A DNA stretch of 64,000 bases from Limisphaerales bacterium (GCA_965221075.1 OZ244865.1:33123-97122), one strand, 5' to 3'. Shown: positions 7,048-29,212, counted from the first letter of the stretch. Notes: generated from the letters alone by a model not told the origin. Translations and numbers: made by a program.

Positions 7048-7112
7048 CCTGCCATCGGTGGCGTCGTTCCACAAGAAGCCGCGCACCCTGGCCGGGGCGG
7101 GGAGGGAGCCCC

Positions 7113-8498: not shown

Positions 8499-8611
8499 CC
8501 TGCCATCGGTGGCGTCGTTCCACAAGAAGCCGCGCACCCTGGCCGGGGCTCGTAGGGAGTTCCCTACCGCTCCATCCCCTGATCGTCCTGGGAGCGGGAG
8601 GGATCCTTTAC

Positions 8612-11161: not shown

Positions 11162-11680
11162 CTACAGCAGGGGCTTGATGCGGGCCAGCAGCTTGACGCG
11201 GCTGAGCATGCCCACGTCCTTGGACTTCACCAGCCCGTCCTTGCCGATCACGAAGGTGGTGGGGATGACCCTGATGCCTCCGTACTTCTTGACGATCTCG
11301 TTCTCCTCGTCCCCCATGACCACCAGGTAGTTCATCTTCTTGTCCTGGTAGAACTTCTGCACCTTCTCAACATTGCCGTTGCCCCGGTCCAGGGAGACGC
11401 CGACGAAGACCACGTCCTGCTCCTCGTACTCCTTTTGGACCTTGATGAAGTCGGGAATCTCGGCCACGCAGGGAGGGCACCAGGTGGCCCAGAAGTTGAG
11501 CACCACCACCTTGTCCTTGAACTTCCCGGACATGACCTTCTCCCCCTTCAGGTCGTTGAGCTCCCAGGCCGGGGCCTTGTCTCCCACCTCGACGGCTCCT
11601 AGGGGAACGGCGAAGGCTGCGAGGAAGACCCCAAGAAGCACGAGCGGATTGCGGACGTTCAGGCTGTTCATGGCTGGCAT
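11162..11680 (-). CDS. Secreted TlpA/ResA-like thiol-disulfide oxidoreductase (WCPPC)
   Basis: ATG 11680 (alternative 11671). Signal-like MPAMNSLNVRNPLVLLGVFLAAFAVPLGA. VGDKAPAWELNDLKGEKV..KDKVVVLNFWATWCPPCVAEIP..VVFVGVSLD..IPTTFVIGKDG. Confidence 0.8.
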   Translation of the reverse strand: MPAMNSLNVRNPLVLLGVFLAAFAVPLGAVEVGDKAPAWELNDLKGEKVMSGKFKDKVVVLNFWATWCPPCVAEIPDFIKVQKEYEEQDVVFVGVSLDRGNGNVEKVQKFYQDKKMNYLVVMGDEENEIVKKYGGIRVIPTTFVIGKDGLVKSKDVGMLSRVKLLARIKPLL

Positions 11681-11791
11681 ATGCTTGCGGACGCGCCTCG
11701 CCGCGCCAGCGGCGGAGGCTGCTTCCATCCTCCCTGCGTGTCGGAAGCTACGGGGCGCTTCCGGGGATGTAAAGGGCTTAGCGGAGAAAGC

Positions 11792-12024
11792 TCAGGCCAG
11801 CGCGCCGCCGCAGCTGCTGCCGGCCCCGGCGGAGCAGGCCAGGCAGTGGTCGCCCGTGGCGATGGGGCGCCCCTCCAGATGCTCCGGGACGGCCTCCCAG
11901 AGATAGGCGGCCTCGGGCTGCCCGCCGAGCTTCAGGCCCAGCATCTGGTTGAAGTCGTAGTCGTAGAGGCGCCCCTTCCAGTCCACGCTCAGGGTGTCCC
12001 GGCACATCAGGCCGATAGAACCGC
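11792..12024 (-). pseudogene. arsS-like radical SAM gene, 3' fragment only
   Basis: Encodes ..LMCRDTLSVDWKGRLYDYDFNQMLGLKLGGQPEAAYLWEAVPEHLEGRPIATGDHCLACSAGAGSSCGGALA, matching the C-terminus of the intact gene at 21779..22726. Upstream of 12024 the sequence switches to the IS21 istA interior. Confidence 0.85.
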
Positions 12025-12468
12025 AGCCACAGAAGCCGCGAGAATCCGAGCACCACCACCAGTGCATGGCGGCGTCCCCATGCCATCCCGAACGACGCGA
12101 AGTCCACCTTGCCCTGCCTTCCCGGCGGCGTTTCGAAGCGGAGCGCTTCCTCGGCCTTCTCCCGGGGTCTGATCTCCCGCACATGGTCACGAACACGGCC
12201 GTACCCGCCCTGGTATCCTGCCTTCCGGATCTCGCCGTACAGACGCCTTGCGCTCAGCTTTGGGTACTCCGCCAATCGAGCCTCGATTATCCCCTTGTAG
12301 GCGTCCAGCTTGTGCGTCTTCGGCTGCCTCGGTCCGTACTCTGCCTTCGCCTCCAGGCCCTGGCCCAGCTTGCCGCCTTCGATCCATCGGTGGATCGTCC
12401 TTCTGTCGACTCCCAGCTGCCGTGCCATCGCCGACTTCGTCATTCCCTGCTCCAGGCACTCTTTTGCC
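12025..12468 (-). mobile_element. IS21-family fragment, part 1 (istA codons ~1-130), interrupted by the IS4-like element
   Basis: Encodes MTKSAMARQLGVDRRTIHRWIEGGKLG..RKAGYQGGYGRVRDHVREI..VDFASFGMAWGRRHALVVVLGFSRLLWLRF, about 90 percent identical to the istA at 19208..20241. It is truncated at 12025 and split at 12468. Confidence 0.8.
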
Positions 12469-14561
12469 AGGTGCTCCCACTAGGGATTCCATGACGGGCC
12501 TGTGCTCGTCGGTTCCATCCAATCAGCGGAAATGAGAGGGATCGAGGTGGTTCCTCCGGTGAAAAACGGGCTTCAGCGGCGAGATCGGCGTCCCTGGGAG
12601 CCCCTTTTCTCGATCCAAATAAACGATGGGCACACCTATCCCGTTCCGGGCCTTTCATATTGAATGAAATGTCCGGAATTCCCAAGACACGGGCCGATGT
12701 CGAAGACATTCAGTCCATTGCTTCCATGATCAGCTTGAATTGCACGGCTTTAGCAAGTGCTTTGCCGCCACCACATCGAGACCACGGATAATGCAATTGT
12801 ACAGAGTTTCCCAGTCGTCATGGACGAACCAGTCGAATAGTCCGCGCACTTTCGATCGCAATTTAATCATTCTTTCCGTTTTCTTCAGCGCCTGGTCGAA
12901 CAGCTGGCAGCATCTCAGCTCCACTTGATCTACCAGAAATGCAAGCATCATCAGGATCCCAAGATTTGTGGACAGATGCTTCTTGCCATGGCCATAGCTG
13001 TGATCGAAATTGTATCCGTGGTTCTTGAGAGTGTTGAAGGTCTCGTTCTCGATCCTCCAGCGTGCACGCCCAGCACGCATGATCTTCACCAGAGTATCCT
13101 TGTTGACTGGCAGGTCCGTGACCCAGCAGAAATGCGTTGTCTTTCCCTTGTCGTCCGTCTCCCAGAATTCCAGAACGTTCACCTTGATTTCCGGGTTCGA
13201 GGCATTCAGCGAAGCGTTTTCGAGATATCTGTACTTGCGCGTGCCTTGTTCTCCATGCTCCGTCTCGAAACACTCCACATCGGGATTCGTTTCAAGCTGT
13301 TCATATAGCCATTTGTGATCGCCGCTTCTGGCGGTGATCACATACTTCATCCCGTGCTCTTCGAGATACTTGATGAATGGGGCATTGGAATAGAGGCCAT
13401 CGAGCACCAGAATGATCTTCATGTGAGGATGTTTTCTGCGGATGTCCTCCACCATCCTGCGGGCAGCGTTCAGTTCGCAGTCGTTCTTCGCCTGCCCAGC
13501 GTTCCTCTTGACCGGTACTGGAGGAAAGGGAAGCACAGCCTTGTGGTCCGGATGCAGGATCACGGCTCCCAACAGCTGGTGGTAGTAGGAGATCGTTCCG
13601 TCCCTGCGATGCTTCTCGCAGCAGTCTTCGCAGCGGATCTTGTCCGAATGGAACCATCCTGTTCCGTCGATGCCGATCAACAGGTAGCCTCCAATGTACT
13701 TGTACTCGTCGAGAACCTTGCCGCGTTGTAGCTGGGCCAGGATCGAGTGGAATGGTGCGGCCAGCATTTCCGGATCCACTAGATCGATGACTTTGCGAAT
13801 CGCCGTGTCGCAAGGAACCTTCACGACCTTGAACAGGTTGATCAGGTTTTGCTTGATGGTCTTCTCGTTGTGAGCCGCCTGGTCGAACTGCAGCAGCGAG
13901 GGGTATTTCAGCGAAAACATCGCAAATGCCGACATGAGATAGTCGGATAGAGAGTATTTCCGCCCTTTGACAGGGCTTTTGATCCGGTCAAAGCATTCCC
14001 GTATCAAGGAAATCAACCCTGGCTTGCCGAGCGTCTTTCGAAAAGCTGCCATTTCAGTCCTGAAATTCGACCGTGGAAAGGCCAGGGCTTGAACATCCGG
14101 CCCTCAGTTGCGTGCTTGGATACGCCACCTGGCCTTGCAGCCAGGTCCTACGGTACAACTTCTCGAATGGTCTACGACTCGTCTACCCTGCCACACTCTC
14201 GGCTGGAATCAAGTTTTTACGATCTCGAAGCCACGATGCGTCGAACATCATGCCACATGATCCCGCATGCGTCATTTTGCCACACCCTCTTCCTGCTGCC
14301 AGAACATGGAGGCAACTGGCGATGAAATGGTCCGTTTCCCACCCCACACCCAGCGTTCGACGACCATTCCTCCAGGCGATGGGACCGGATAGTGGCTGGA
14401 ATGGGCGAGAAACACGTTGGGGGGCTGCCCTGTTCCGGCAAACCGGAGCAGGGAGTCCTCCTACGGGCGCATTGGCCTCCCGAGCGTATCCCGAGTCCGC
14501 GAATGGGCTTTCGAGAATGTCGCGAAAACAAAGGGCTTTTGTGCTCTAGTGGGAACTGCTG
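12469..14561 (-). mobile_element. Complete IS4-like insertion sequence nested in IS21
   Basis: Imperfect terminal inverted repeats: aggtgctcccactaggg.. at 12469 and ..ctctagtgggaactgct(g) at 14561. Flanked by a 10-bp direct repeat ctcttttgcc (12459-12468 and 14562-14571). The intact IS21 copy has this site once (ctctttcgcc near 20207). GC is visibly lower than the surroundings. Confidence 0.75.
12730..14052 (-). CDS. DDE transposase, IS4-like
   Basis: 440-aa intact ORF: ..GGYLLIGIDGTGWFHS..KIILVLDGLYSNAPFIKYLEE..RARWRIENETFNTLKNHGYNFDHSYGHGKKHLS. These are D, D and the YREK-like RW.IEN block typical of IS4-type enzymes. The exact family is not resolved. Confidence 0.8.
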   Translation of the reverse strand: MAAFRKTLGKPGLISLIRECFDRIKSPVKGRKYSLSDYLMSAFAMFSLKYPSLLQFDQAAHNEKTIKQNLINLFKVVKVPCDTAIRKVIDLVDPEMLAAPFHSILAQLQRGKVLDEYKYIGGYLLIGIDGTGWFHSDKIRCEDCCEKHRRDGTISYYHQLLGAVILHPDHKAVLPFPPVPVKRNAGQAKNDCELNAARRMVEDIRRKHPHMKIILVLDGLYSNAPFIKYLEEHGMKYVITARSGDHKWLYEQLETNPDVECFETEHGEQGTRKYRYLENASLNASNPEIKVNVLEFWETDDKGKTTHFCWVTDLPVNKDTLVKIMRAGRARWRIENETFNTLKNHGYNFDHSYGHGKKHLSTNLGILMMLAFLVDQVELRCCQLFDQALKKTERMIKLRSKVRGLFDWFVHDDWETLYNCIIRGLDVVAAKHLLKPCNSS

Positions 14562-14571
14562 CTCTTTTGCC

Positions 14572-14719
14572 TTCAATCTCGTCTCCTTCCCGTGCATCGC
14601 TTCCTCTCTCCTTCCCGGCCCCAACGCCTCGGGAATGGAGAGTTCCGAACCTCTCCGCAACCCGAAATTGGGGCCATTTTCAGTTGACAGAAGTGCGACA
14701 TTTTCAATTGTCCCCAACA
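14572..14719 (-). mobile_element. IS21-family fragment, part 2 (left terminal region)
   Basis: ttcaatctcgtctccttcccgtgcatcgc...gaaattggggccattttcagttgacagaagtgcgacattttcaattgtccccaaca matches 20216..20363 of the complete copy. It ends with the same terminus TGTTGGGGACAATTGAAAATG (reverse complement). Confidence 0.8.
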
Positions 14720-15241
14720 TCCCGAGGATGTGGCCGCTCAGGCCCAGTATGGGCCGATCCTCTGCGGACATATCGTTGCGCTTCATGTAGTGATCCAGAT
14801 CCCCATCAACAAGATCATCGAGGTGATGAACTACTTCTTCAATGTCAAGCTGTCGGAGGGGACCGTGGTGAGGGTTTGCAGGAAGAAGGCGGAACTGCTG
14901 AAGAAAGTCGTCGATGTTCTCGAGAGGAAGATCTGCAAGGAGAGCAGGATCAAGCATCTCGACGAGACGGGATGTCCAGTTTCAGGAAAGCTGCACTGGC
15001 TCCATGTAGCATCGACTGGAAAGCTGACATGCTTCCGGGTCAGAAGGACGCGTGGCGAAGTGTTCGACAACCTGCGTGGAATAGTGGTTCACGATCATTT
15101 CTCCTCCTACTACAAGATCGAGGAGATCGAGCATGTAGTATGCAATGCCCATCACCTTCGGGAGCTCTATTCCATCATTGAGAACAATCCCGAGGAAGTC
15201 TGGGCAGATCAGCTAGTAAAGCTTCTGCTGGAGGCGCTGGT
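14720..15241 (+). pseudogene. IS66-family transposase fragment
   Basis: ..GPILCGHIVALHVV..IKHLDETGCPVSGKLHWLHVASTGKLTCFRV..RGIVVHDHFSSYYKIEEIEHVVCNAHHLREL.. shows the IS66-type DDE core. It is truncated on the left by the IS21 end (14719) and on the right by the MITE-like unit (15242). Confidence 0.7.
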
Positions 15242-15691
15242 GTTATTTGCGGCGATTATCCTGACAGTTTTTCCCAGATTGCTCCGGGCTGACATCCAAT
15301 CGAGGGGGAGCCATTGGCCTTGCAGGAGGCGATAGGCGCTTGCTGCCTGAGGAGAAGACTTCCTGGAAGGGAGAAGCTGCCTGATCCCGCTGGTGTGAGC
15401 GGCAGCCGATGGAGCAGCTCTACTTTCCGGGTACGTCATTCCAGTCATAGGCCCGACACAGGCCTCGGGCGTCGCGTCGGACGGCCGGATTGTCCCTGCA
15501 TGAGGCGGAAGACGTAGCAGTTTTCGCACTGGTCGCCATCGAAGACGCAGAGGATCCGCTTCAGGTTCCAGCTCCAAACCGTTCTGGGATGCGGAAGGAG
15601 GTTCCCGAGGTGGAGACGAAGATGGTGTCGCTTGCTGGGGGACAGTCGAAAAAAGATCTCCCGATTCACCGGAATATCTACGCAAATAACA
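15242..15691 (+). mobile_element. MITE-like ~450-bp unit with terminal inverted repeats, copy A
   Basis: Bounded by TGTTATTTGCGGCGATTATCC.. and ..GGAATATCTACGCAAATAACA (about 15 of 20 positions inverted-repeat). The whole unit recurs, inverted, at 43507..43950. Confidence 0.6.
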
Positions 15692-16041
15692 AAAGTGCCG
15701 CCAATATCGATCTGTGCGAAGAGGAGGGCATCGTGCCCTATATCGCCCAGAGGAGGGAGAAGCATCAAGAACCACTGGAGAAGCGGCTGGAACCGCCGCC
15801 GGAATGTCCCGGGAACGCCAGTGAGGTGGAACGGGCGCGTCACCGGCTCAAGACTCCGGAAGGCAAGGCAGTGTACTCGAAGCGGAAGTTCACGGTGGAA
15901 ACGGTGTTCGGCAACATCAAGGAGGCGCTCGGCTTCCGACGGTTCCACCTGCGAGGCAAGCAATCTGTCCAAGGAGAGTGGACCCTGGTGAGCCTGGCTT
16001 GGAATCTGAAGCGAATGCATTCGCTGACCAACGCAGCATGA
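15692..16041 (+). pseudogene. IS1182/IS5-like DDE transposase, C-terminal fragment
   Basis: ..SAANIDLCEEEGIVPYIAQRREKH..YSKRKFTVETVFGNIKEALGFRRFHLRGKQSVQGEWTLVSLAWNLKRM has a C-terminal signature common to IS1182/IS5-type transposases. There is no N-terminal two-thirds. Confidence 0.6.
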
Positions 16042-16066
16042 GGGGGAGGGACCGGGATCCCCTCTC

Positions 16067-16423
16067 TCATGGGGGCAGGCGCTTCCTGTGAGGGGCCGAT
16101 CCAGTCCCCATTTCACAACCCCACGCGATTATCCCGTCGATCGAGTCGCCTGAAGAGCCTCGAGAGCATGCTTGCCGGTCGGCAAGCACCCTGCAGACGA
16201 GTTGTTCAGGAACGCGATCCCGTTTTCCGACAGGCTCCTGGGCAGTTTTTCGTTTTCGCCTTCGTTTCTCCAGCAGGATCCTCTCCCTTTCCCTGCCGAA
16301 CAGGATCGCGCCGATCCGGTTCAGATTGGCCGCAAGAATCCCAAGCTTCACTGTGCGTTCGAATCCCTGCCTGTTTCTGTTGAGGACCCGGTCCAGGCCG
16401 CGCTGCTGCTCTCCCCGAAAGCA
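16067..16423 (-). pseudogene. Possible further DDE transposase C-terminal remnant
   Basis: The minus-strand frame reads ..RRIDALI*CFRGEQQRGLDRVLNRNRQGFERTVKLGILAANLNRIGAIL. This follows the pattern G-L-x-R..R-G...V...LAA-NL-x-R seen at IS5/IS1182-type transposase C-termini. It is preceded by a stop. Confidence 0.3.
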
Positions 16424-16573
16424 TCAGATGAGCGCATCGATTCGCCTGGCCGACTGACAAGCGAACTTACTTCATTGCTAGTTCGATCATTCGCATCTCT
16501 TCATGAGCCCACCGAGGGTGCAGGCTCACGGATTCAGGACATATGTTTCTGATACAAACCTGGTGGCATGAAA

Positions 16574-17782
16574 CTATCGTTTTTTCCAACAATACGCAGC
16601 CAAGCATAGCAAAACAATTATAACAACAGGCAACAGTAAGTACATTGATTTATCAGATCGCTTGATTTCCGCAATGCCTGCTTCAGGTTCTTTCTTGGTT
16701 AATCTTCCATCCGCATCCACATAAAAGTAGCCTGCTTGTGGATCTGTTAAATCCGTAACCTGCGTTGCAGGCTTAGTATACTCATCAATCAATGTATAGT
16801 TGATGTGTTCACTGAATCCAAACTCATACCGTTTTAACCTATATATTGCCTCGCCAACGCTATTTCCTGCTTCCTCTTTTGCTGCCACAATGCCTGGAAG
16901 CCATAGATCATGCTCGACATTATAAGAATAATCTTCAAAGCTAACCGTTCTTGCAATGGCTTTGCCGGAGTGAGAAGAATAAAAAACAGGCGCAAACCCG
17001 TAGCTGGGATCCAGATGAATCTCAATTGTGCGCATAGGTATTACTATCTGCAGATTCTTTAATTCAGCGATAATAGAATCAACAAAGTTTTCGCTTACTG
17101 GAACACCGATCGACTCATGGTCCCTAAACAGGTTGGGATAGTCAAGAATCTCGCATTTTACGACTATTGTATTATTTGATTCAAATATTTCGACATTTTT
17201 CCCATTCTTCAGAAGATATTCCGTCCTGGATCCGAAGTATGGTGCGTTTTCCATATAAGAAAAAGGACTGTAAATAGGTGTGTGCACACCTGCGTAATGA
17301 AGGTATTTAAATGAGAACAAATAATCCATATTAATATTATCTGCGTTATTGACTGGGTCGCGTATTGTTAATTTAGCTGGGATACCGTCGTCATCGAGAT
17401 CAGGCGTTCCGTTATAAAAAGCTTTCCCATCAAAAGATCCTTCATTTCGAAACACATCTCCTTCATGGTACATTATATAACTGACTCTGAATTTTTCGCG
17501 TTCTATCCAAACAATTACCTCAGTAGGTGCATCGAAGCTCTGAGCAACACGCCATCCAGTTCTAGAAGAAGACGTAACTTCCAGTTCAACCTTGGCATTA
17601 GCAAACGCTCTGGACACCTTTTTGTTCAAATTGTCCATTTCCTGATGGAACTGTTCGATAAGCGAGGTATCTGCATCAGCACTATCCTGAGTCTGACAAA
17701 TCTCGCTATTGCCCAGCAAGAGGAAAGCCATAAGCATCCACACTTTACTCAGAGGCTGTTTCTTGTCTTCTGTGATCTTCAT
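16574..17782 (-). CDS. Hypothetical membrane-anchored exported protein (strongly AT-rich orphan)
   Basis: Intact 402-codon ORF in a stretch that is visibly AT-rich (well under 45 percent GC by eye) inside a high-GC genome. N-terminal hydrophobic VWMLMAFLLLGNSEI. C-terminal TM plus basic tail MYLLLPVVIIVLLCLAAYCWKKR. I recognise no family motif. Confidence 0.7.
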   Translation of the reverse strand: MKITEDKKQPLSKVWMLMAFLLLGNSEICQTQDSADADTSLIEQFHQEMDNLNKKVSRAFANAKVELEVTSSSRTGWRVAQSFDAPTEVIVWIEREKFRVSYIMYHEGDVFRNEGSFDGKAFYNGTPDLDDDGIPAKLTIRDPVNNADNINMDYLFSFKYLHYAGVHTPIYSPFSYMENAPYFGSRTEYLLKNGKNVEIFESNNTIVVKCEILDYPNLFRDHESIGVPVSENFVDSIIAELKNLQIVIPMRTIEIHLDPSYGFAPVFYSSHSGKAIARTVSFEDYSYNVEHDLWLPGIVAAKEEAGNSVGEAIYRLKRYEFGFSEHINYTLIDEYTKPATQVTDLTDPQAGYFYVDADGRLTKKEPEAGIAEIKRSDKSMYLLLPVVIIVLLCLAAYCWKKR

Positions 17783-17812
17783 CGCATACCTTATTCAACC
17801 GGAACCCGTCAA

Positions 17813-18246
17813 TGACATTGAGACACTTGATCCGTCAATTACCAGACCGCCTCAGGCAGCTCCTTGGGCCTGGGGATAACGTGGACGAAGCGCTCCGGAT
17901 GGGCTCGCCAGGCGCCTTTCAAGGTGCGTCTGCGTCCTTTCAGGCAGGCAGGCGCCTTCCCGTAGTGGACGGTGTCCGGGGTGAGCATCGCGATGCCCGA
18001 GTGCCGGTGTTCTCCGTTGTACCAGGTGAAGAAGGACCGGCAGAACGTCCTGGCAGCGTTCAGGTCGGGGAAGTGCTGGGGAAAGCTGGCGTGGTACTTC
18101 AGGGTCTTGAACTGGGCTTCGGAGAAGGGATTGTCGTCGCTCACATGGGGCTGGCTCAGCGAACGGGTGACGCCGAGGTCGGCCAGAAGCTGGGTGGTGC
18201 ACTTGCTGGTCATGGGGGCGCCGCGGTCGGAATGCAGGGTGAGCTG
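17813..18246 (-). pseudogene. IS3-family transposase (OrfB, rve domain) 3' fragment with right end
   Basis: ..LTLHSDRGAPMTSKCTTQLLADLGVTRSLSQPHVSDDNPFSEAQFKTLKYH..FFTWYNGEHRHSGIAMLTPDTVHYG... Stop at 17839. Terminal ..caagtgtctcaatgtca ends at 17813. Truncated upstream by the IS21 right end. Confidence 0.75.
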
Positions 18247-18419
18247 AGGTGGTCGGGGTCGTTTGGACAAATTGGGAGCAGAACTAAGGATTGTCAATGT
18301 CAGATGATAATGTCCCACTTTTGGTGGCTTTGGCACCCCTTGATCATTGCGCTGCGCCACCGCGGCCCTTCGGGGCCGTACGGAGGGAGCGAAGCGACCG
18401 GAGTACGGACCGAAGGGCT

Positions 18420-19211
18420 TCATCCCGTACCTCCTCCGCTGCTCTCCTTCGCCCTCCCCATCAGGGCCTGATGCTCCCTCATCCGGTAGCTGTTTCCCCG
18501 GATGTTGACGATGTGGCTGTGGTGCACCAGGCGATCGAGCATCGCCGACGCCATCACCTCGTCGCCAAGCACGCCGCCCCATTCCTCGAACCCCTTGTTC
18601 GAGGCCGGGTCGTCGAAGCCCGCTCGTGGCGAGCGTTGATCAGCTGGAAGAAGAGCACTGCGCCATCCCGGCTCACGGGCAGGTAGCCGATCTCGTCCAC
18701 CACCAGGACTGCGGGATGGACGAGGACCCTCAAGCGATGGGCCAGCCTGCCAGCGGCTCGGGCTTCGGTCAACGACTCGACCAGACTGGAGAGCGTGCCG
18801 TAGTAGACCCGTCGGCCTGCCTCGGCCGCCGCGATGGCCAGGCTGATCGCCAGATGCGTCTTTCCGACTCCCGGAGGCCCCCAGGAAGATGACATTCTCC
18901 GAACGTCCCACGAAGCCGAGCTCGTGCAGGCTCTCGATCTGTTCGCGCCGTATGCTCGGCTGGAAGGAGAAATCGAACTGCTCCAGCGTCTTGACCGCTG
19001 GCAGCCGTGAAGACCGCATGGCGGTGAAGAGCCTCCGGTTGTTCCGAAGAGCGATCTGCGCGTCGAGCAGCTCCTCGATGGCCTCGGTAGCTGTCGCAGC
19101 CCCGCTGTCGGCCTTGGCCAGGATCCCGTCCACCGCTTCCAGAGCGCCAGGCATCTTCAGATCGACAAGCATCGAGCGCACCCGATCGCGCCGCTCCATC
19201 GCCTTCTTCAC
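18420..19211 (-). pseudogene. istB: IS21 helper ATPase IstB (two frameshifts)
   Basis: N-terminus MKKAMERRDRVRSMLVDLKMPGALEA.. and C-terminus ..NKGFEEWGGVLGDEVMASAMLDRLVHHSHIVNIRGNSYRMRE lie in one frame. Walker A GPPGVGKTHLA and Walker B VLVVDEIGYLP lie in another frame (18554..18895). Confidence 0.8.
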
Positions 19212-20241
19212 TGTGCCACCTCCGCGTAGGTTCGCAGGGGACGCCGTTCCACCTCGACGGCAGCCGGCGGCCGTGCCGCCTGGACCCTCTCTCGTGCCTT
19301 CAGAGCCGCCTCAGGGGCTCCCAAACGCCTGTATGGGCCTACAGCCAGGGGATGCAGGGCATGCCGCTCGGCTCGCTTGAAACGGTCTGCAGGGCGCTCC
19401 CCGGTCGTCCCGTGCACCCGCACGTTCGCAGTGTCTTCCAGCCAGTGGGCCGCCTGCTCGTTGAGGTCCTCGTCGTTGAGGAATTGGCGTCCGTAGCAGA
19501 AGCTCTCGCGCAGGTAGCGGATCGGCCGCTCCACCTTGCCCTTGGTCTGGGCACGGTAGGGGCGGCACGATCGTGCCGCAAATCCCCAGTGCGACGAGAA
19601 GCGCAGAACTCCTCGTTGAGCGTCAGCCGGCCTCCATCGGTCCGACGGTCCGAAACCACCACCGAGCGCATCTGGTCGAAGAGCATCTCCCGGGGAACGC
19701 CTCCGAAGTAGCCGAAGGCGCTCTCCAGGCCATCGAAGAGCGTCTCCATCGTCTGCCGCCGATTGAACCGCAGCCACAGAAGCCGCGAGAATCCGAGCAC
19801 CACCACCAGTGCATGGCGGCGTCCCCATGCCATCCCGAACGACGCGAAGTCCACCTGCCCCTGCCTTCCCGGCGGCGTCTCGAAGCGGACCGCTTCCTCT
19901 TCCATCTCCCGGGGTCTGATCTCCCGCACATGGTCACGAACACGGCCGTACCCGCCCTGGTATCCTGCCTTCCGGATCTCGTCGTACAGACGCATTGCGC
20001 TCAGCTTTGGGTACTCCGCCAATCGAGCCTCGATTATCCCCTTGTAGGCGTCCAGCTTGTGCGCCTTCGGCTGCCTCGGTCCGTACTCTGCCTTCGCCTC
20101 CAGGCCCTGGCCCAGCTTGCCGCCTTCGATCCATCGGTGAATCGTCCGTCTGTCGACTCCCAGCTGCCGCGCCATCGCCGTCTTCGTCATTCCCTGCTCC
20201 AGGCACTCTTTCGCCTTCAATCTCGTCTCCTTCCCGTGCAT
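19208..20241 (-). pseudogene. istA: IS21 transposase IstA (frameshift near 19600)
   Basis: MHGKETRLKAKECLEQGMTKTAMARQLGVDRRTIHRW..VDFASFGMAWGRR..FDQMRSVVV.. in the frame of 19339..20364. It continues as ..WGFAARSCRPYRAQTKGKVERPIRYLRESF..VHGTTGERP.. in the frame of 19208..19828. Confidence 0.8.
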
Positions 20242-20363
20242 CGCTTCCTCTCTCCTTCCCGGCCCCAACGCCTCGGGAATGGAGGGTTCCGAACCTCTCC
20301 GCAACCCGAAATTGGGGCCATTTTCAGTTGACAGAAGTGAGACATTTTCAATTGTCCCCAACA

Positions 20364-22001
20364 ATTCCCTGCATTACTGGCAAATCCTCTCCAGGACAAC
20401 GGCCGCGCCCGCTCGTGCAGCGGCGGCGGCGACGGACCGGACGGGAACTGGACCATCTCTCCCATTCCATGCCGATCAGGCGCAAGCCGCCGATGCTCCG
20501 GCGCCAGCCGGGGAGACCGGCCCTATGGAGATCAGCGAACCCCGCCCCAAGCAGGGCGGATGCCGTCCGGATCCGCCGGATCGGAACCATCCTCCCTGCC
20601 GGAACCGCCAGGAACCTTTCCCGGATCCGGCCGACTCCTTCAAGTTTCTGGAAAGGAGGCGATCCTCTCATGCCTCGGTGGCCAACGGCAGGAGGGGAAG
20701 CGGACAAGGGGAAAGCGCAGCGAAGACCGGCACGAGGCGCTCCGGCGGGCCGCCACCGCAGCCTTCGGCCGGCCTCCGAGCGCGCCGCCGCGCCGGGGCC
20801 GGCAGCCGCGAGGAGGACTCCCGGCGAGAAAGCCGCTGGCTGAAGCGGTCCTACAGCCAGAGGCTGGCTCCCGGCACTGGAGGCGGACCAGGAGCCGAGG
20901 CTGGCGGCAGCAAGGGCGGCAATCGCGCTTGCCAGGCCAGCCGCCCTGCTCGGCCTTGAACGGACAGCGGCGGATTCAGGACGCCCCGAGCCAGGGAGGC
21001 CCAAGGGAGCCTGCGCCGATGACTGGAGGGAGAGTCCTATCCCGGGCCGGGAAGACCGCTCCGTCCCGAGAGCGCCGTGGGGGTCGAAGGGAGGATTCCC
21101 GGCCCGGACGATCCGCTTTGGGGAGCGGATCCGGGAGGCAGGCCCGCCCTACAGCAGGGGCTTGATGCGGGCCAGCAGCTTGACGCGGCTGAGCTTTCCA
21201 TAGTCCTTGGACTTCACCAGCCCGTCCTTGCCGATCACGAAGGTGGTGGGGATGCCCTTGATGCCTCCGTACTTCTTGACGATCTCGTACTCCTCGTCCC
21301 CCATGACCACCAGGTAGTTCATCTTCTTGTCCTGGTAGAACTTCTGCACCTTCTCAACATTGCCGTCGCCCCAGTCCAGGGAGACGCCGACGAAGACCAC
21401 GTCCTGCTCCTCGTACTCCTTTTGGACCTTGATGAAGTCGGGAATCTCGGCCACGCAAGGAAGGCACGAGGTGGCCCAGAAGTTGAGCACCACCACCTTG
21501 TCCTTGAACTTCCCGGATATGACCTTCTCCCCCTTCAGGTCGTTGAGCTCCCAGGCCGGGGCCTTGTCTCCCACCTCGACGGCTCCTAGGGGAACGGCGA
21601 AGGCTGCGAGGAGGACCCCAAGAAGCACGAGCGGATTGCGGACGATCAGGCTGTTCATGGCTGGCATATGCTTGCGGACGCGCCTCGCCGCGCCAGCGGC
21701 GGAGGCGGCTTCCATCCTCCCTGCGTGCCGGAAGCTACGGGGCGCTTCCGGGGATGTAAAGGGCTTAGCGGAGAAAGCTCAGGCCAGCGCGCCGCCGCAG
21801 CTGCTGCCGGCCCCGGCGGAGCAGGCCAGGCAGTGGTCGCCCGTGGCGATGGGGCGCCCCTCCAGATGCTCCGGGACGGCCTCCCAGAGATAGGCGGCCT
21901 CGGGCTGCCCGCCGAGCTTCAGGCCCAGCATCTGGTTGAAGTCGCAGTCGTAGAGGCGCCCCTTCCAGTCAACGCTCAGGGTGTCCCGGCACATCAGGCC
22001 G
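20364..22001. repeat. Segmental duplication, copy B (matches 10372..12024)
   Basis: Starts exactly at the IS21 terminus (20363|20364) with attccctgcattactggca... Continues colinear with copy A through the TlpA-like gene into arsS. Confidence 0.9.
21149..21667 (-). CDS. Secreted TlpA/ResA-like thiol-disulfide oxidoreductase, duplicate with altered active site (SCLPC)
   Basis: Same length and context as 11162..11680. There are 12 amino-acid differences, including FWATSCLPCVAE versus FWATWCPPCVAE. Confidence 0.75.
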   Translation of the reverse strand: MPAMNSLIVRNPLVLLGVLLAAFAVPLGAVEVGDKAPAWELNDLKGEKVISGKFKDKVVVLNFWATSCLPCVAEIPDFIKVQKEYEEQDVVFVGVSLDWGDGNVEKVQKFYQDKKMNYLVVMGDEEYEIVKKYGGIKGIPTTFVIGKDGLVKSKDYGKLSRVKLLARIKPLL

Positions 22002-23933: not shown

Positions 23934-24337
23934 GGGGAGGAGCGATTGTCCGTTCGTGCCGGGAGGATTGTCAATCGCCGGATCGTTCCGGAACAGGCCG
24001 GTCCTGCGCAGGCATGGCCGGCTGGCGAAGGAACGGGCGGCCTCCACGCTGGCCGACGGCTTTTTCTCCGGCAATTCGGACGGTTTCTTCCGAACCGCGC
24101 TTGAGACCGGCTTCCGATCGGGGGAAGCGCCATGGGGCCTGGAGGAGCCGGCCGGCCGCCTGCAAGAGGAACGCTCCCGGATCCCCGAAGAATGGGCGGC
24201 AGCGGGCGGAGCGGCCACGGCTTCCCGGGGAAGCCGTGGCAGTCCTGCCCTGCCTGTCCGTCAGGGACGGCGATCGTGAGCGGCAGCGGGCCGGACAGGT
24301 CCTCCATGCCGATGCAGGCCTCTCATGGCGGTCTTCC

Positions 24338-25190
24338 ATGAGAAATCCGAAGCACGCCCTCTCCCTCTTCCTGTCCCTGCTGCCCCCGTTCCTGGCGAAG
24401 CAAGAGCATGGGATGCCCAGGCGCTGTTCCCGATGCTCGATGGAAAGGCCGTTGAGCGGAAACTGTCGTCAAGCGGCTCGAAGCCGATCTCCATGGAAGA
24501 CGATCCCTCTCCCGGGAATACCGGGCATGCAAGCGGGATCGACGAAGCCCATCCTCCTGCCTTTCACGCCCTGCGCAGTTCATCTCTGGCAAGAGGCGTG
24601 GAACGCGTGCCAGGCATGGCCTCGAAGATTGCTGCGCCCGACATGGAGGAAACCTTCAAGGCAAGGCCGCCAGGGACGGCTGTCTGTTTAAGAACAGCAG
24701 CGGCAGCGAGGTTTTGGCCGGGGCGGAGATCGAAATCCAGCTGGAACCGGCTTCCGATGCGATCGGCAAGCTCGACGGAAGGAGCCGGGGAGAATGCGTC
24801 CTGTGGCTGGACCCTGCCATGGGGATGGCCGAAGCTGGGGCCTGCGACAAGCCGCAATCACGGAACCAGTCACGGCCGGAGACACTGCGATGAATCAGCC
24901 GGCCGGCCACATGGAACGCCTTCGCCGTGGAAAGGGGCTGCATCCGAACGCTGCCCTGGCCCGCCCTGCCGGAGACAGTCCTTCCTGGAACATGTGGCCG
25001 TGGCGCCTGACGATCCCGTCGGGATCGATCTGGCGGCATCCCAGACAACAGAGGCCTGGAACCGGCACCGCCCCGCTGCGAAAGGATTCCTCAGGGCGGC
25101 CCATGCCGGTCTGCGATATCGCCAGCCGCAGGCTGGAAGACGTGGAGCTCCTCGGGATCGTCGGCAAACTGGCCAACGCCTTCGGCGTTA
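24338..25190 (+). pseudogene. Decayed paralog of the 27353..29212 TlpA-fusion gene (at least 3 frame changes, CxxC lost)
   Basis: MRNPKHALSLFLSLLPPFLAKQE (compare MRAPKHILSLSLLFALLPLAQEE). In shifted frames: AQALFPMLDGKAVERKLSSSGSKPISMEDDPS; VERVPGMASKIAAPDMEETFK (compare VEGMLELASKLDLPDEEGAFQVK); GAEIEIQLEPASDAIGKLDG..GECVLW (compare GADIEIRLELDPDAIEKLDVKYQGEYVLY); FLEHVAVAPDDP in place of LEFWATWCGPC. Confidence 0.6.
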
Positions 25191-25301
25191 TTGACTGCTT
25201 CGGGCCTGCCGGCTCGAGCAGAGAAAGTCAGGCTGTCGGAGCCATCGCTCCCCTCGCGCCAACCCCAGGCGCCCTTGCAGAATGACGCCATAGACGGCAG
25301 G

Positions 25302-26639
25302 ATGCCTACAGCCATGAAGCGCGGTGAACAGTACGACCAGGAACTGCTGGAAGAATACAGCAAGCCCTTGGTCAGGCAGGCCGCGCCCGCCTTCGTTGGC
25401 CGCCAGGACATCCTCGAGCTGATCCGGGACAACTGCCGCGTTGCGATGCGGGCCATCGGAAGGAACGAGCCCGCCGCCGGGCTCACCATCGTCCTCCAGG
25501 GCGCCCCCGGGGCCGGGAAGACCGCTGTCCTCTCGCACCTGGAGAAGGAATGGGACGGGAAGAAGGACCGCCCTCATATCCTGCCAGTGGACCAGACCAC
25601 CCTCGAAGACCCGGAGACTGCGGCGCTCGAGATCATCAGGAAGATCGCTCCCTCCAAGGCGAAGGACTACCGCCAGAAGGTCGTCACGAGCTCCGGAGCC
25701 AGGATAGGCATTGGAGGCCTCGGCGCGGAAGGCTCGACCACCCGTGCGACCGACCCGGAAGCCGCCTCCTTCTCCATCCTGAAGGAAGCCCTTCCCCCGC
25801 AGGACTGGAAGCAGCCCCTCTGCATCCTGGTGGACGAGATCCAGAACATTGAAAAGATCCACAAGAGCACACTGCAGTCCCTCCACCTAGGGAACCACCG
25901 CCTCCCCATCGTTCCCATCTACGCCGGCCTCGCCAATTCCACTGCTGCGCTGGCCGATGCCGGCCTCAGCCGCCTGCAAATCGGCAACGTCCGCACCCTG
26001 GGACCCCTGGTCGGCGAGGAGGTGCGCTCCTGCGTGAAGCAGATGCTGGTCAACTGCCGCATCGGCCTGGGCGCCGGCTACGTGCTGGATTGCCTGTCCG
26101 GCTGGATCGTGGAGAGCTCCGAGGGGTGGCCCCAGCATGTCCGGACCGAGGCGGCCGCTCTCTTCTGGGCTCTCGGCCTGGCCAAAGGCGAACTCCAGCG
26201 CATCGAGGTCGAAGCCATGATGGAGCGCGCAAGCGAATACCGGAACGAGAGCTATGAAGCCCGCCAAAGCGACGAAATGGCGAGCGCCGACCACCTGGTG
26301 GCGGCGGTCATGAAGGAGCTGCCTGCCGACGGCGGCCTGCGCCGCAGCAGGGTGCTGGACGCCATCAAGGGGAACGCCAAAGCCGGCCACGGCACCGGAT
26401 GGGAGCTTCCAAAAGGAATGGACGCGGATCTGTTCCTTGACCATCTGATCCAGAAGGGAGCCCTGCAGCCCGTCAACGCAGACACGCTGGCCTTCCCCAT
26501 CCCCAGCCTGCGCGCCTGGCTGATCGACCGGACCCGTCCGGAGGCGGAGAAAGCCGACCCCCGGCGCAAGCTCGCCCAGGCCCTCGTCCAGTGGGAAGCG
26601 GCCCTGGCGGCGGAATGGGCGGCCGAGGAGCTCAGCTAG
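25302..26639 (+). CDS. AAA+ P-loop ATPase paralog, copy 4 (intact; ends at a TAG that replaces Gln of copy 2)
   Basis: ATG 25302. MPTAMKRGEQYDQELLEEYSKPLVRQAAPAFVGRQDILELI..GLTIVLQGAPGAGKTAVL..PLCILVDEIQNI..LPIVPIYAGLANST..PIPSLRAWLIDR.. Confidence 0.8.
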   Translation: MPTAMKRGEQYDQELLEEYSKPLVRQAAPAFVGRQDILELIRDNCRVAMRAIGRNEPAAGLTIVLQGAPGAGKTAVLSHLEKEWDGKKDRPHILPVDQTTLEDPETAALEIIRKIAPSKAKDYRQKVVTSSGARIGIGGLGAEGSTTRATDPEAASFSILKEALPPQDWKQPLCILVDEIQNIEKIHKSTLQSLHLGNHRLPIVPIYAGLANSTAALADAGLSRLQIGNVRTLGPLVGEEVRSCVKQMLVNCRIGLGAGYVLDCLSGWIVESSEGWPQHVRTEAAALFWALGLAKGELQRIEVEAMMERASEYRNESYEARQSDEMASADHLVAAVMKELPADGGLRRSRVLDAIKGNAKAGHGTGWELPKGMDADLFLDHLIQKGALQPVNADTLAFPIPSLRAWLIDRTRPEAEKADPRRKLAQALVQWEAALAAEWAAEELS

Positions 26640-26847
26640 GCCAGGGATTCCTCCCGCTCCCAGGACGGCCAGGGGATGGATCAGGGCCGGCCGACTGCCG
26701 CCTGACCACCTCCAGGCTTCCGGACGGCTGCCCAGCGGCGTCGGCGCCTGGCATGGCCAGTCAACAATACGGACGTTATTCTGTCGGGATATCGTGCCAG
26801 GAAAACGGCAGGTCGACATGCCATGATGATTGACGAAATAAGCCATT

Positions 26848-27300
26848 ATGGCGCTTTCATGGCGCCCCCACCAGGAATGGGCCCATCCGAGGTTCTCCGC
26901 AGCTGGACAGGACACCGCCGATCGGCGCCTGGACGGGCTGGAATCGGCCCGGCAGAAAAGCGCCCAGACCGGCCAGTTCCTCGAAGTCTCCGTCCCAGCC
27001 GTCTCCGCGGGATGGATCGCAGGACTGCCCGGCCGCTTGACTGAAGAGAGGAAACCGCTTGATCGCCATATGGGAGAAAAACCGGATTGACTGGCGGCAG
27101 GACATCCGGACCAGGGCTATGGCCACCCTCTTCGCCCCTGTTTGCGGAGGCAGAGCGGGATCTGGCTTCAGAACGGACCAGGGAGGGCTTGGCCTGCCCT
27201 TCTGCCGCATGTCCTGCTTGCCGCCTTGACATGCATCCCGCAGCGCTTCATTCACCTCTGCACATGCGTGGACATCGCCTCTTGTCCAGCCATCGGTTAG
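26848..27300 (+). pseudogene. Small serine recombinase (resolvase/invertase type), decayed
   Basis: MALSWRPHQEWAHPRFSAAGQDTADRRLDGLESARQKSAQTGQFLEVSV. In shifted frames: LIAIWEKNRIDWRQDIRTRAMATLFAP and FAEAERDLASERTREGLA. These match VVYPRFSSTSQDTASQRL..IDQFIEVSA, FVAIMENIRINGKQDMQTKVMTALFALFAEIERDLIPERTREGMA of the copy at 44595..45156. Confidence 0.6.
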
Positions 27301-27352: not shown

Positions 27353-29212
27353 ATGAGAGCTCCGAAGCACATCCTCTCCCTCTCCTTGCTCTTCGCCCTG
27401 CTTCCCCTGGCCCAGGAAGAGGAAGGGGATGCGCAGGCGCTGTTCTCGAAGCTCGCGGGAATGGCCGTCGAACTGGGACTGGAATCAAGCGGCTCGAAGT
27501 CGATCTCCTTGGAGGACGATCCCTATCTCGGGAAGCTGGGAGAGGATATCCTGAAGCTTCTGGTGGAAAGGGACGCCGAGGACTACCTGGACTCCAGCGT
27601 GGCTACTCCCGAGATGTACAGGCTTTGGAACAAGGTCAGAGAAACCGAAACACACCGTGCCCAGGCCATTTCTTCTCCCTTTTCTGCTCTCAAGCACGGA
27701 GTGGAAGGCGTGCTGGACCTGGCCGCGAAGCTCGCCTTGCCCGACGAGGAGGGAGCCTTCCAGGTGAAGTCGATCCGGGTCGGCAGCCTGAACAGCATCT
27801 CCAGAGAGATCCTGTGGGGGAGCGGGATCGAGATCCAGCTGGCCCTGGCTCCCGATGCGATTGGCGAGCCCGACAGGAAGTACCAGGGGGAATATGTCCT
27901 GTACGTCGCAAGTGCCATACGCTCGGTCGACGGCTGGGGCCTCGTCCCTAACCGCATGGGATGGACAGGCCTCCCCGATGCCTTGCTGGGGGAGCATGAA
28001 AGGACTGCCCTGTCCTTCAATGCCCTATGGAAGGAGGAGGATTATGCAAGGCTCGCCGAACCCGGCGCCACAGTTGTCGGGACAGAGGGAAGCGGCTCGG
28101 ATTCCCCGGATTCGATCACCATGGAGGACGATCCCTCTCTCGGACGGCTGGGGAAGGACATCCTGCGGCTTCTGGTCGAAAGGGACGCTTCGGCCTACCT
28201 GGACTCCAGCGTGGCATCGCCCGAGTCTCTCGGGCATGCGATCGGGATCGGGGAAGCCGCCATAACTGCCGCTCGTGCCCAGATCATTTCAGCTCTCGAG
28301 GACGACGTGGAAGGCATGCTGGAACTGGCCTCGAAGCTCGACTTGCCCGACGAGGAGGGCGCCTTCCAGGTGAAGTCGATCAAGGTCGGCACGCTGCTCG
28401 ACAGGAACAGGAGCGGCGGCGAGAGACTTGATGGAGCGGATATCGAGATCCGGCTGGAGCTGGATCCCGATGCGATCGAGAAGCTCGACGTGAAGTACCA
28501 GGGGGAATATGTCCTGTACGCCGACGGTGCCATGCGCTCGGCCGACGGCTGGGGCCTGTTCGGTAGAAAGATCAGGTGGATCAGCCTCCCCGAGGCGCTG
28601 CTGGGGGAGGAGGACAAGACTGCTCTTCTCGCCGAGGCGTACCTGAAGGAGCATGGAACCTTGATGCCCGGGACTGCGGCTCCCGAGTTCGCCTTCTACG
28701 GATTGGAGGAAGGCGGCGAGTTCCACAGCAAGGCGGAACTGAAGGGCAAGGTGGTGGTGCTGGAGTTCTGGGCGACCTGGTGCGGTCCCTGCCAGGAGCC
28801 CATGGCCAAGCTGCAGGCATACGTGGATCGGAATCCTGGATGGAAGGGCAGGGTCGAAGTGCTGGCGCTGAGCATCGACTCGGCTCCCGAGAAGGCCCTG
28901 GCGCATCTGGAGAGGAACGGCTGGACCTCCACCCGGAATGTCTGGAGCGGTCCCGGGGAATGGAACGCCGGCGCAGCCCAGGCCTTCAAGCTAGAATCAA
29001 TCCCCACCATGTACGTGATCGGCGCCAACGGGATGATCGCCGAAGCCGGGAGTCCCAATCTCATCGATGTGCCCGCGCTAGTCGAGCATCTCCTCGACAA
29101 TCCAGGCTACACTGCCCCCAGACCGTCCAGAGTGTCGCCCGTGCGCGTCTACACCCTTCCTCCAGGAGTCCTTCCTTCCAGCGCGGCCGAGGCCTCCCCC
29201 CTTCTCCGCTGA
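27353..29212 (+). CDS. Exported protein: two copies of an unassigned ~175-aa domain fused to a C-terminal TlpA-like thioredoxin domain (WCGPC)
   Basis: Signal MRAPKHILSLSLLFALLPLA. Internal repeat aa ~46-220 versus ~247-425 (SI(S/T)(L/M)EDDP.LG.LG.DIL.LLVERDA..YLDSSVA..VEG.L.LA.KL.LPDEEGAFQVKSI.VG..IEI.L.L.PDAI...D.KYQGEYVLY..A.RS.DGWGL). C-terminal GTAAPEFAFYGLEEGGEF..LKGKVVVLEFWATWCGPCQEP..IPTMYVIGANG. Confidence 0.8.
   Translation: MRAPKHILSLSLLFALLPLAQEEEGDAQALFSKLAGMAVELGLESSGSKSISLEDDPYLGKLGEDILKLLVERDAEDYLDSSVATPEMYRLWNKVRETETHRAQAISSPFSALKHGVEGVLDLAAKLALPDEEGAFQVKSIRVGSLNSISREILWGSGIEIQLALAPDAIGEPDRKYQGEYVLYVASAIRSVDGWGLVPNRMGWTGLPDALLGEHERTALSFNALWKEEDYARLAEPGATVVGTEGSGSDSPDSITMEDDPSLGRLGKDILRLLVERDASAYLDSSVASPESLGHAIGIGEAAITAARAQIISALEDDVEGMLELASKLDLPDEEGAFQVKSIKVGTLLDRNRSGGERLDGADIEIRLELDPDAIEKLDVKYQGEYVLYADGAMRSADGWGLFGRKIRWISLPEALLGEEDKTALLAEAYLKEHGTLMPGTAAPEFAFYGLEEGGEFHSKAELKGKVVVLEFWATWCGPCQEPMAKLQAYVDRNPGWKGRVEVLALSIDSAPEKALAHLERNGWTSTRNVWSGPGEWNAGAAQAFKLESIPTMYVIGANGMIAEAGSPNLIDVPALVEHLLDNPGYTAPRPSRVSPVRVYTLPPGVLPSSAAEASPLLR

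Follow-up and report, generated by a model that had tools for sequence, protein, structure and literature searches.

Several described systems share part of their organization with a group of genes that we analysed in a 64,000-nucleotide (nt) stretch of the genome of a Limisphaerales bacterium (GCA_965221075.1 OZ244865.1:33123-97122; the whole of this stretch is called the window hereafter). Orc1/Cdc6 proteins and the archaeal Arch_ATPase proteins (SSO1545, PDB 2fna) consist of an AAA+ base, a lid and a C-terminal winged helix, and the Arch_ATPase proteins are stand-alone, multicopy proteins of unknown function. In the STAND nucleoside triphosphatases (NTPases), which include the NB-ARC, NACHT and Avs-type proteins, the core is formed by an NTPase domain, a helical domain and a winged helix. 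The small serine recombinases Mpi (the master DNA invertase of Bacteroides fragilis), Hin, Gin and Pin combine a resolvase domain with a helix-turn-helix, and Mpi acts at inverted repeats that bracket invertible promoters. In Tn5053 and Tn402, one strand carries an AAA+ gene, then a recombination site and then the gene of a small serine resolvase (tniB...res-tniR), and in integrons a tyrosine recombinase gene with its own site is accompanied by cassettes that carry folded attC hairpins. In the window, copies of an AAA+ ATPase gene are present at three loci (i, ii and iii), and at two of them the ATPase gene is followed by the remnant of a gene for a small serine recombinase.

A preliminary description of this region had proposed that a TlpA-like thioredoxin gene, the ATPase gene, an AT-rich spacer and the recombinase gene form a cassette that occurs three times in the same order and orientation, with only the ATPase kept intact. 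We found the ATPase at the three loci, the recombinase at two and the thioredoxin gene at one. The explanation towards which we lean, with some reserve, is that the ATPases represent a multicopy family under selection, whose units were the cargo or the neighbours of a system of recombinase and recombination sites that is now defunct in this genome.

The ATPase copies, their family and their selection

The paralogs at the three loci showed blastn identities of 76–92% and tblastn E values from 0 to 1e-167. Self-comparison of the window together with tblastn revealed five copies, three of them intact, one with a 1-nt frameshift and one truncated. Copy i (25302–26639, + strand) encodes 445 amino acids (aa), and a premature TAG costs it about 16 residues of a C-terminal tail that is retained in the other paralogs. 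Copy ii (46624–45323, − strand) encodes 433 aa, is 61% identical to copy i and does not have the disordered insert located at about residues 136–160 of copy i. Locus iii is a head-to-tail tandem array with a period of 1452 bp (6584–9979, − strand), in which the middle unit, copy iii-b (8498–7113, −), is intact with 461 codons. It is preceded by copy iii-a (9950–8612, −; 91.7% nucleotide identity with iii-b), which is frameshifted, and followed by copy iii-c (7047–6576, −), which is truncated and comprises residues 1–157 only. Copy iii-a is damaged only by an extra base near 9750, in a run of C within the Walker A codons, and may therefore be either a very young pseudogene or, given a homopolymer error in a long-read assembly, an intact gene. 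The preliminary description had reported a triplicate ATPase at locus iii and surviving reading frames of 433–461 codons; both statements agree with our results, except that a single member of the array is intact. A dispersed repeat of 320–450 nt starts where iii-c ends, with copies at 6284–6600, 15237–15691 and 43507–43954 (68–95% identity); a copy of this repeat also lies beside an LpoB-like gene, just past locus ii.

At least five further ATPase paralogs are present outside the window on the same 3.31-Mb contig, again as tandem pairs, so that the genome contains at least 9–10 copies, five of these in the window. An alignment of nine copies of this genome (window copies plus loci L001 and L002; L numbers designate loci outside the window) showed that a leader of approximately 45–60 nt upstream of the ATG is common to all of them, a somewhat shorter stretch than the 55–95 nt proposed previously. 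A TTG located 27 nt 5′ of the ATG is kept in the nine copies (position 25275 in copy i) and may be the true start codon. On the 3′ side the gene is followed by a conserved flank of about 90–125 nt, which in copy i extends from 26640 to 26762 (+) and includes a GC-rich imperfect hairpin. This flank is also present in the recombinase-less paralog L001, where it can be followed up to an A-rich left half-site before the sequences diverge. The ATPase unit, composed of leader, gene and 3′ flank, is about 1.5 kb long; its boundaries are equally sharp at five dispersed loci. These copies arise through tandem duplication and dispersal.

The AlphaFold2 model of the ATPase, obtained with 82 homologs (mean predicted local distance difference test, pLDDT, 91.4; predicted template-modelling score, pTM, 0.88), has an NTPase base of the alpha/beta type with a helical lid, and ends in a winged helix. 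Its top Foldseek matches were Orc1/Cdc6 proteins of eukaryotes and archaea and the archaeal AAA+ protein SSO1545 (E values of 7e-9 to 1e-7, sequence identity of 11–14%), together with the NB-ARC domain of plant NLR proteins; the alignments covered 410–450 columns with a template-modelling (TM) score of 0.4–0.5. The predicted fold thus corresponds to that of ORC/Cdc6-like or STAND-type AAA+ proteins with a winged helix. That the protein belongs to the AAA+/P-loop NTPases is evident from the motifs GAPGAGKT (Walker A) and LVDEIQ (Walker B), invariant in alignments of 20 and of 82 sequences and intact in copies i, ii and iii-b; FVGR, GWPQH and a C-terminal CPIPS are also invariant in the family.

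Profile searches were less specific. In Pfam, the window ATPases gave weak and generic matches to AAA_22, AAA_16, KAP_NTPase, NACHT and nSTAND. Copy ii exceeded the gathering threshold of AAA_22 (30.4 versus 27) and copy i only that of KAP_NTPase (27.4 versus 20), AAA_16 stayed under its threshold in every copy, and these generic P-loop models define no specific family. The scores obtained with the model for the ORC/Cdc6 initiator, TIGR02928, were 11.5–16.5 bits against a cut-off of 181.3. NCBIfam and PHROGs yielded nothing specific for the ATPase, a profile search of PDB sequences returned generic P-loop matches only, and PADLOC-DB v2 gave no significant match (best E values of 0.001–0.06, restricted to the P-loop region). 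The assignment as ORC/AAA_22/AAA_16-like made in the preliminary description is in line with the weak Pfam matches and with the modelled fold, and its statement that the combination is not a described defence system is in line with the lack of any PADLOC model match. In a literature search we found no description of this ATPase family, nor of a recombinase-site system such as the one presented below.

Considering these data, the ATPase belongs to an unnamed family of ORC/Cdc6-like AAA+ proteins of the STAND type, which are about 430 aa long and have a winged helix. At least 876 clusters (50% identity) match the family profile at E ≤ 1e-30. The family differs from Orc1/Cdc6 and Arch_ATPase in that identity with them is as low as indicated above and their Pfam and NCBIfam models do not reach the cut-off on the window ATPase; moreover, it is bacterial, has its own motifs (GWPQH, CPIPSxR) and showed no link to a replication origin. 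Its similarity to the STAND NTPases includes the arrangement of the core, the weak NACHT and nSTAND matches, the multicopy nature of the family and the fast evolution of its noncatalytic surfaces described in the following paragraph. It also extends to the longer members of the family: C-terminal ankyrin repeats were detected in 7 of the 10 long members tested, and one close relative has repeats similar to tetratricopeptide repeats (TPR). Given that these repeats occupy the position of the STAND sensor, the domain order of the long members is that of STAND sensors. The window ATPases, in contrast to STAND defence proteins, lack both a repeat sensor and an effector domain. As a separate observation, the gene for a relative's ATPase of 588 aa with C-terminal TPR-like repeats lies (L089, 1–9767) beside a cluster resembling a defence island, with genes for an AAA_15/AAA_21 ATPase, a DUF1156 protein and a PLD-SNF2 helicase.

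The ratio of nonsynonymous to synonymous substitution rates (dN/dS), whose estimation among the paralogs had been suggested in the preliminary description, was 0.52–0.67 in pairwise comparisons of the seven intact paralogs of this genome (dS of 0.10–0.48). In the NTPase core the ratio decreased to 0.16–0.4, and values of 0.8–1.2 were obtained for the pre-P-loop helix, the terminal part of the lid and both the helical and the winged-helix domains. A low ratio in the core together with a ratio close to 1 elsewhere indicates that these are working genes with fast-evolving surfaces and not drifting pseudogenes. Hence, the NTPase core is under purifying selection, and the helical and winged-helix surfaces evolve fast. 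The proposal that selection acts on the ATPase alone is supported by these ratios.

To place the family in a wider context, one genome per species was scanned, which yielded more than 500 relatives, and the best 78 ATPase loci were used to examine the neighbourhood of the gene. These loci belong to metagenome-assembled genomes (MAGs) of Verrucomicrobiae, Alphaproteobacteria and Gammaproteobacteria, including Arenicellales and ‘Candidatus Poriferihabitaceae’; the names of the taxa, since genera of Poriferihabitaceae are named for sponges, suggest that the carriers are associated with these animals. Many of the relatives' MAGs contain 5–8 copies of the ATPase gene, often in tandem arrays, in which frameshifted members are frequently found. 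When the open reading frames (ORFs) of 80 loci were all clustered de novo, no neighbour conserved across the family was revealed: the only clusters were the ATPase itself, its antisense ORFs and housekeeping synteny in one alphaproteobacterial group. Because no neighbour is common beyond that group, the ATPase needs no fixed partner. In eight to nine alphaproteobacterial MAGs (L006–L011, L019, L022 and L059; approximately 8001–9200) the ATPase gene stands alone at one and the same position, flanked by genes that, judging by their translations, encode a family III CoA-transferase-like protein and a MaoC-like dehydratase. This shared position points to stable vertical inheritance in the group.

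The recombinase unit and its core site

The remnants of the recombinase were located by tblastn using as query the intact recombinase of a relative (L041). At locus ii, the remnant (44595–45139, −; match 45139–44610, E = 5e-54) conserves residues 7–61 and 81–202, split across two frames, and has lost residues 62–80, where the motif S-R-L-G-R-S of the intact relative is located. The remnant of locus i (26858–27300, +; match 27044–27260, E = 2e-7) has undergone large deletions and frameshifts, so that residues 94–175, approximately, and an N-terminal trace at 26880–26898 are what can be detected. At locus iii, where a weak recombinase-like trace had been suggested, tblastn detected nothing. Family homology is clear for the window sequences (PF00239, 4e-8; NF009949, 2.5e-21), neither copy could encode a functional small serine recombinase, and both are pseudogenes. 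None of the best 120 homologs of the recombinase is encoded on the 3.31-Mb contig of the window, which makes it unlikely that this genome has an intact close copy.

Like Mpi, Hin, Gin and Pin, the intact L041 recombinase combines a resolvase catalytic domain with a helix-turn-helix at its C terminus, and it aligns with nearly the full length of the Mpi model NF009949 (175 bits, E = 1.5e-51, model positions 3–200 of 203). This score is below the equivalog cut-off of 272 bits; accordingly, the protein is related to Mpi without being its equivalog. The recombinase also matches the phage DNA-invertase family phrog_125.

The region previously regarded as an AT-rich spacer aligns with the 5′ region of intact recombinase genes on unrelated contigs. 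In five different contexts the similarity begins abruptly about 95 nt before the ATG of the recombinase, at the palindrome AAACG-AG-CGTTT, and on the other side it ends 0–35 nt past the stop codon. The spacer and the recombinase gene are thus a single unit, about 0.76 kb in length, coding for a small serine recombinase similar to Mpi. At locus ii the spacer (45140–45248, −) includes a perfect core, AAACG-AC-CGTTT (45233–45244), the left arm GGTTCGGTCAAAAAAACG and the 5′ region of the recombinase; at locus i (26763–26857, +) it includes a degenerate core, AATACG-GA-CGTTAT (26763–26780), and the 5′ control region of the recombinase. The homology that the preliminary description had followed through the ATPase, its 3′ flank and the spacer into the recombinase holds between these two loci.

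The core of the recombination site is a 12-bp palindrome, AAACG-NN-CGTTT. The exact core AAACGNNCGTTT was absent from 1.22 Mb of proteobacterial control loci and occurred 10 times in 254 kb of Verrucomicrobia-type loci; in nearly all of the ten the central dinucleotide is AG, and their arms are conserved. Its ACG/CGT half-sites may resemble the Mpi repeat consensus. Two classes of sites were distinguished: S′, located at the recombinase gene, where the left arm and the core are followed by a right arm that runs into the gene, and S, free-standing, in which a left arm of that kind and the core precede the right arm TTCCGGTTCGCCCGA. These arms combine differently from locus to locus.

Comparison of relatives in which the recombinase is intact showed that natural haplotypes break exactly at the core. 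The sequences of L086 and L041 are 99.6% identical over 841 nt that end at the core and diverge from that point; past the core, the recombinase is found in L086, and a segment of 3.5 kb that lies between directly oriented S and S′ sites is found in L041. In the reciprocal situation, L083, L084 and L085 are 99.9% identical rightwards of the core and unrelated leftwards. Locus L003 and the intact L041 recombinase come from one genome; in L003, a pair of S sites is arranged as direct repeats 2277 nt apart, with the ATPase gene between them. An ankyrin-repeat gene (L003, 10641–11501, −) lies directly past the S site at 10056, the second of the sites that flank the ATPase, and homologous sequence is also found after S sites in L083, L041 and L086, suggesting a second recurrent site-bounded segment. 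Inverted pairs of core sites were seen neither in the window nor in L041, and when inverted repeats able to delimit an invertible segment around the ATPase genes were sought, the only pairs obtained were weak and such as chance would produce in GC-rich DNA. For the ATPase P0011 of a relative, the search for further contexts produced one context, devoid of core sites. The 19-nt core of the S site was also searched for in the metagenome collection of the Joint Genome Institute (JGI); none of the 19 matches had matching flanks, recombinase or ATPase, and for this reason they were discarded as chance matches.

The association of recombinase and ATPase was evaluated in the 13 ATPase loci of the Verrucomicrobia or Planctomycetes-Verrucomicrobia-Chlamydiae (PVC) type (window loci i–iii, L001–L005, L041, L087, L088, L089 and L109). 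A recombinase or its remnant is located within 2.5 kb of the ATPase in 5 of them, and within 8 kb in none of the 74 proteobacterial loci. The adjacency was observed at window loci i and ii and in L041, L087, L088 and L081. When the recombinase was taken as the anchor, an ATPase remnant appeared directly downstream of it in L081/L082, and in L083 one was located some 6 kb upstream, immediately to the left of an S site. The layout varies: in the window the recombinase follows the ATPase on its strand, in L087 and L088 it is directly upstream, and in L041 it is on the opposite strand, 1.9 kb away. The adjacency is thus real and non-random in this lineage, and it is neither obligatory nor fixed in layout. 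Taken together, the relatives place the recombinase on either side of the ATPase gene or on the other strand, contrary to the constant order of the preliminary description.

Both Mpi and the integrons are partial models for this arrangement. The recombinase differs from Mpi in its lower score and in that the relatives display flank replacements and direct repeats in place of promoter inversions, the window copies being dead; inverted repeats bracketing an invertible promoter, typical of Mpi, were absent from the window and from L041. The layout in relatives is reminiscent of an integron because the recombinase gene has its own site (S′), free-standing S sites share its core, segments of a single gene or a few genes are found between direct sites, and arms have been exchanged among loci. 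Nevertheless, this resemblance is one of logic only, since the enzyme is a serine and not a tyrosine recombinase and the sites are double-stranded palindromes and not folded attC hairpins; in addition, no long cassette array is present. The system is therefore not an integron.

Thioredoxin genes and other features of the window

At locus i, all the parts proposed in the preliminary description were corroborated: a decayed TlpA-fusion paralog, the intact ATPase and the recombinase remnant. The decayed paralog (24332–25040, +; E = 7e-10) is spread over several frames and matches the N-terminal repeat region of an intact gene for a TlpA/ResA-like thioredoxin fusion, located at 27353–29212 (+; 619 aa, WCGPC motif). 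Consequently, the ATPase-recombinase pair of locus i sits between two tandem TlpA-fusion paralogs. The intact gene has an internal duplication ahead of its thioredoxin domain (27500–28011 and 28112–28626, 74% nucleotide identity), and its N-terminal repeat region has no Pfam match.

The decayed paralog is the sole genuine remnant of a thioredoxin gene directly upstream of any ATPase copy of the window; a comparison of the three upstream regions, in the three frames of the ATPase strand, revealed nothing significant besides it. At locus ii, the ATPase, the ISL3 insertion and the recombinase remnant were as described, and the supposed thioredoxin-fold remnant (approximately 48200–48510, −) was rejected: it had no Pfam match at E ≤ 1, and the region corresponds to a fragment of a group II intron, domains D1–D4 (48219–48443, −; Rfam RF02005, 110.7 bits versus a gathering score of 49). 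For this fragment we saw neither a match to D5/D6 nor an ORF for a reverse transcriptase, and it appears truncated beside the ISL3-family transposase gene; the latter (46735–48192, +) lies between the intron fragment and ATPase ii, and no terminal inverted repeats of an ISL3 element were detected. At locus iii, the ORF with the CKEC motif (9935–10297) was likewise discarded as a thioredoxin, as it showed no Pfam match at E ≤ 1 and no significant similarity to any TlpA gene.

A genuine AhpC/TSA-Redoxin gene of the TlpA type (11162–11791, −) does exist 1.2 kb upstream of array iii. This gene is carried by a segmental duplication of about 2 kb (10372–12468 and 19758–22001, 94–96% identity), whose second copy, near locus i, is divergent in orientation to the ATPase. 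The duplication also includes fragments of two further genes, a radical-SAM/DUF3641 gene and, with its 5′ part, an IS21-like istA, and the order of the pieces is permuted between the copies, as at the junction of a tandem duplication. The same order of three genes at three loci cannot be sustained because the locus ii remnant is an intron fragment, the locus iii ORF is unmatched and the TlpA duplicate near locus i is divergent. In addition, a thioredoxin gene was found within 8 kb at only 1 of the 78 related ATPase loci and at neither L001 nor L002 of this genome; it was never colinear with the ATPase outside one lineage-specific neighbourhood, an outcome that the preliminary description had itself named as speaking against its proposal. 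A TlpA/ResA gene is consequently not part of what is repeated, and the thioredoxin gene lies outside the repeated unit.

Regarding the remaining content of the window, its GC content is about 0.68 with a low-GC stretch at 12–19 kb, and a nest of insertion sequences (IS) with a GC content of 0.45–0.58 occupies 12000–20400. This nest comprises an IS21-like pair, with a frameshifted istA (19339–20373, checked with Pfam) and an IstB-like ORF recognized from its translation (18420–19211). It also comprises a 440-aa DDE-type transposase-like ORF (12730–14052) and further transposase fragments, all of them identified from translations, as well as a low-GC ORF of 402 aa (16574–17782). Near either end of the window, long ORFs with a very high GC content contain paralogous stretches (55357–56232 and 57662–58537) and repeats (1500–4600 and 59000–64000) with identities of 65–84%. 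The only tRNA gene is that for tRNA-Ala (CGC) at 1185–1260 (+).

Explanations for the association of ATPase and recombinase

If the ATPase units are, as we are inclined to think, cargo or neighbours of a recombinase-site system, the recombinase would exchange DNA at S and S′ sites, by excision, integration or exchange at the core. Such an exchange would carry ATPase units, among other segments, beside the recombinase gene and to new places, which would explain why the recombinase is found next to ATPase genes in varying order, and tandem duplication would then amplify the units. This genome would have lost the recombinase and kept the cargo, the two decayed recombinase copies and one decayed site being a fossil of the system. 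More tentatively, the Mpi-like recombinase could run a cassette exchange with S′ at its own gene, free-standing S sites (AAACG-AG-CGTTT) and ATPases among the cassettes that it would take up, cut out and spread; we consider this a possibility worth stating, and a less than probable one. As for the ATPase, its fold, fusions and evolutionary pattern suggest that it is probably a switch powered by ATP, with variable helical and winged-helix surfaces that would bind DNA or a ligand, and that its role would be in conflict or in host interaction.

Other explanations were considered. The three-gene cassette, understood as an operon or mobile module of which only the ATPase still functions, can draw on locus i, where all the parts are in the proposed order, on the genuine TlpA/AhpC-type gene on the strand of array iii, and on a relative (L005) in which two TlpA-fusion genes precede the ATPase on one strand. 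Nonetheless, the intron fragment at locus ii, the unmatched ORF at locus iii, the origin of the gene near array iii in a segmental duplication with a divergent twin, and the scarcity of thioredoxin genes at related loci, L001 and L002 included, largely refute it, and we give it hardly any credence. A second explanation is that the ATPase is a helper like TniB, TnsC, IstB or MuB from a transposon that lost its transposase, the recombinase being a cointegrate resolvase as in Tn5053. The order ATPase, site and resolvase on one strand does resemble tniB...res-tniR, the region is rich in IS, and a cyanobacterial TnsC structure appears at rank 48 of the distant fold matches. However, as the preliminary description had noted, nothing like TniA or TniQ is present nearby, and in our searches TniB, IstB and TnsC had no Pfam or NCBIfam match either, so the analogy with Tn5053 fails; terminal inverted repeats are missing too, the ATPase is about 130 aa longer than its counterpart in Tn5053/Tn402 and includes a winged helix, and Orc1/Cdc6 and NB-ARC, which share that winged helix, are better fold matches than TnsC. 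Given that no DDE transposase or TniQ gene is consistently adjacent in any of about 90 loci (no conserved transposase neighbour among the 78 of the context analysis) and that the ATPase stands alone between metabolic genes at one syntenic position in several alphaproteobacterial genomes, this explanation is very improbable.

That the adjacency is incidental, a pile-up in recombination-prone, decaying DNA in which one segmental duplication copied the ATPase-recombinase pair, deserves more attention, although we find it doubtful. The IS nest, the ISL3 gene, the intron fragment, the 2-kb duplication and the dispersed repeats are all compatible with it, and loci i and ii could derive from a single duplication of the pair. 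Against this, the adjacency recurs on other contigs with other flanks and in another order (L041, L087, L088 and L081), the core is lineage-specific and coincides with exact haplotype breakpoints, and the ATPase units keep the same sharp boundaries at the five dispersed loci. It is also conceivable that the recombinase is a phase-variation invertase that switches the adjacent ATPase gene, with a role in defence or host interaction, by inverting a promoter or gene segment. The proximity of the recombinase to the Mpi family, its match to phrog_125 and its changing orientation with respect to the ATPase, with opposite strands in L041, would fit this idea, but neither in the window nor in L041 is a promoter or an ATPase gene enclosed by an inverted pair of cores, the paired sites of L003 and L041 are direct repeats that would lead to deletion or excision and not to inversion, and the haplotype differences seen are flank replacements; hence, we judge it unlikely.

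The explanation that we prefer, a selected ATPase family associated with a recombinase-site system, also has results that weigh against it. No free-standing site was found upstream of any ATPase copy of the window or between the tandem copies, and for this reason a movement of ATPase cassettes by the recombinase would be conjectural in this genome. Neither site nor recombinase is present at 8 of the 13 Verrucomicrobia-type ATPase loci and at the 74 proteobacterial ones. The arrangements in L003 and L083 may be one that was inherited and not the result of two events, and the direct repeats of L003 could have been left by tandem duplication. The position of the recombinase upstream of the ATPase in L087, L088 and L081 demands extra assumptions in a model with a single cassette. 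A dN/dS close to 0.6 could also mean weak selection in a small population of symbionts, and the role in defence or sensing is an analogy only, because the minimal ATPase has no recognizable effector or sensor domain.

These results have consequences for annotation, where the three-gene cassette should not be propagated, one of its parts being an intron fragment and another no gene remnant at all. They also bring to light a family without a name, made up of minimal ORC/STAND-like ATPases that expand as tandem arrays; the growth of the arrays, the ankyrin fusions and the carrier names that point to sponges make it a candidate for a part in phage or host conflict. The exact natural breakpoints at a defined 12-bp core make the idea of a serine-recombinase cassette system directly testable. 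The interest of the finding is moderate in the window itself and would be higher if cassette exchange holds in the relatives: the system would then be a serine-recombinase analogue of the integron, and the window a fossil of it in which the cargo is still under selection.

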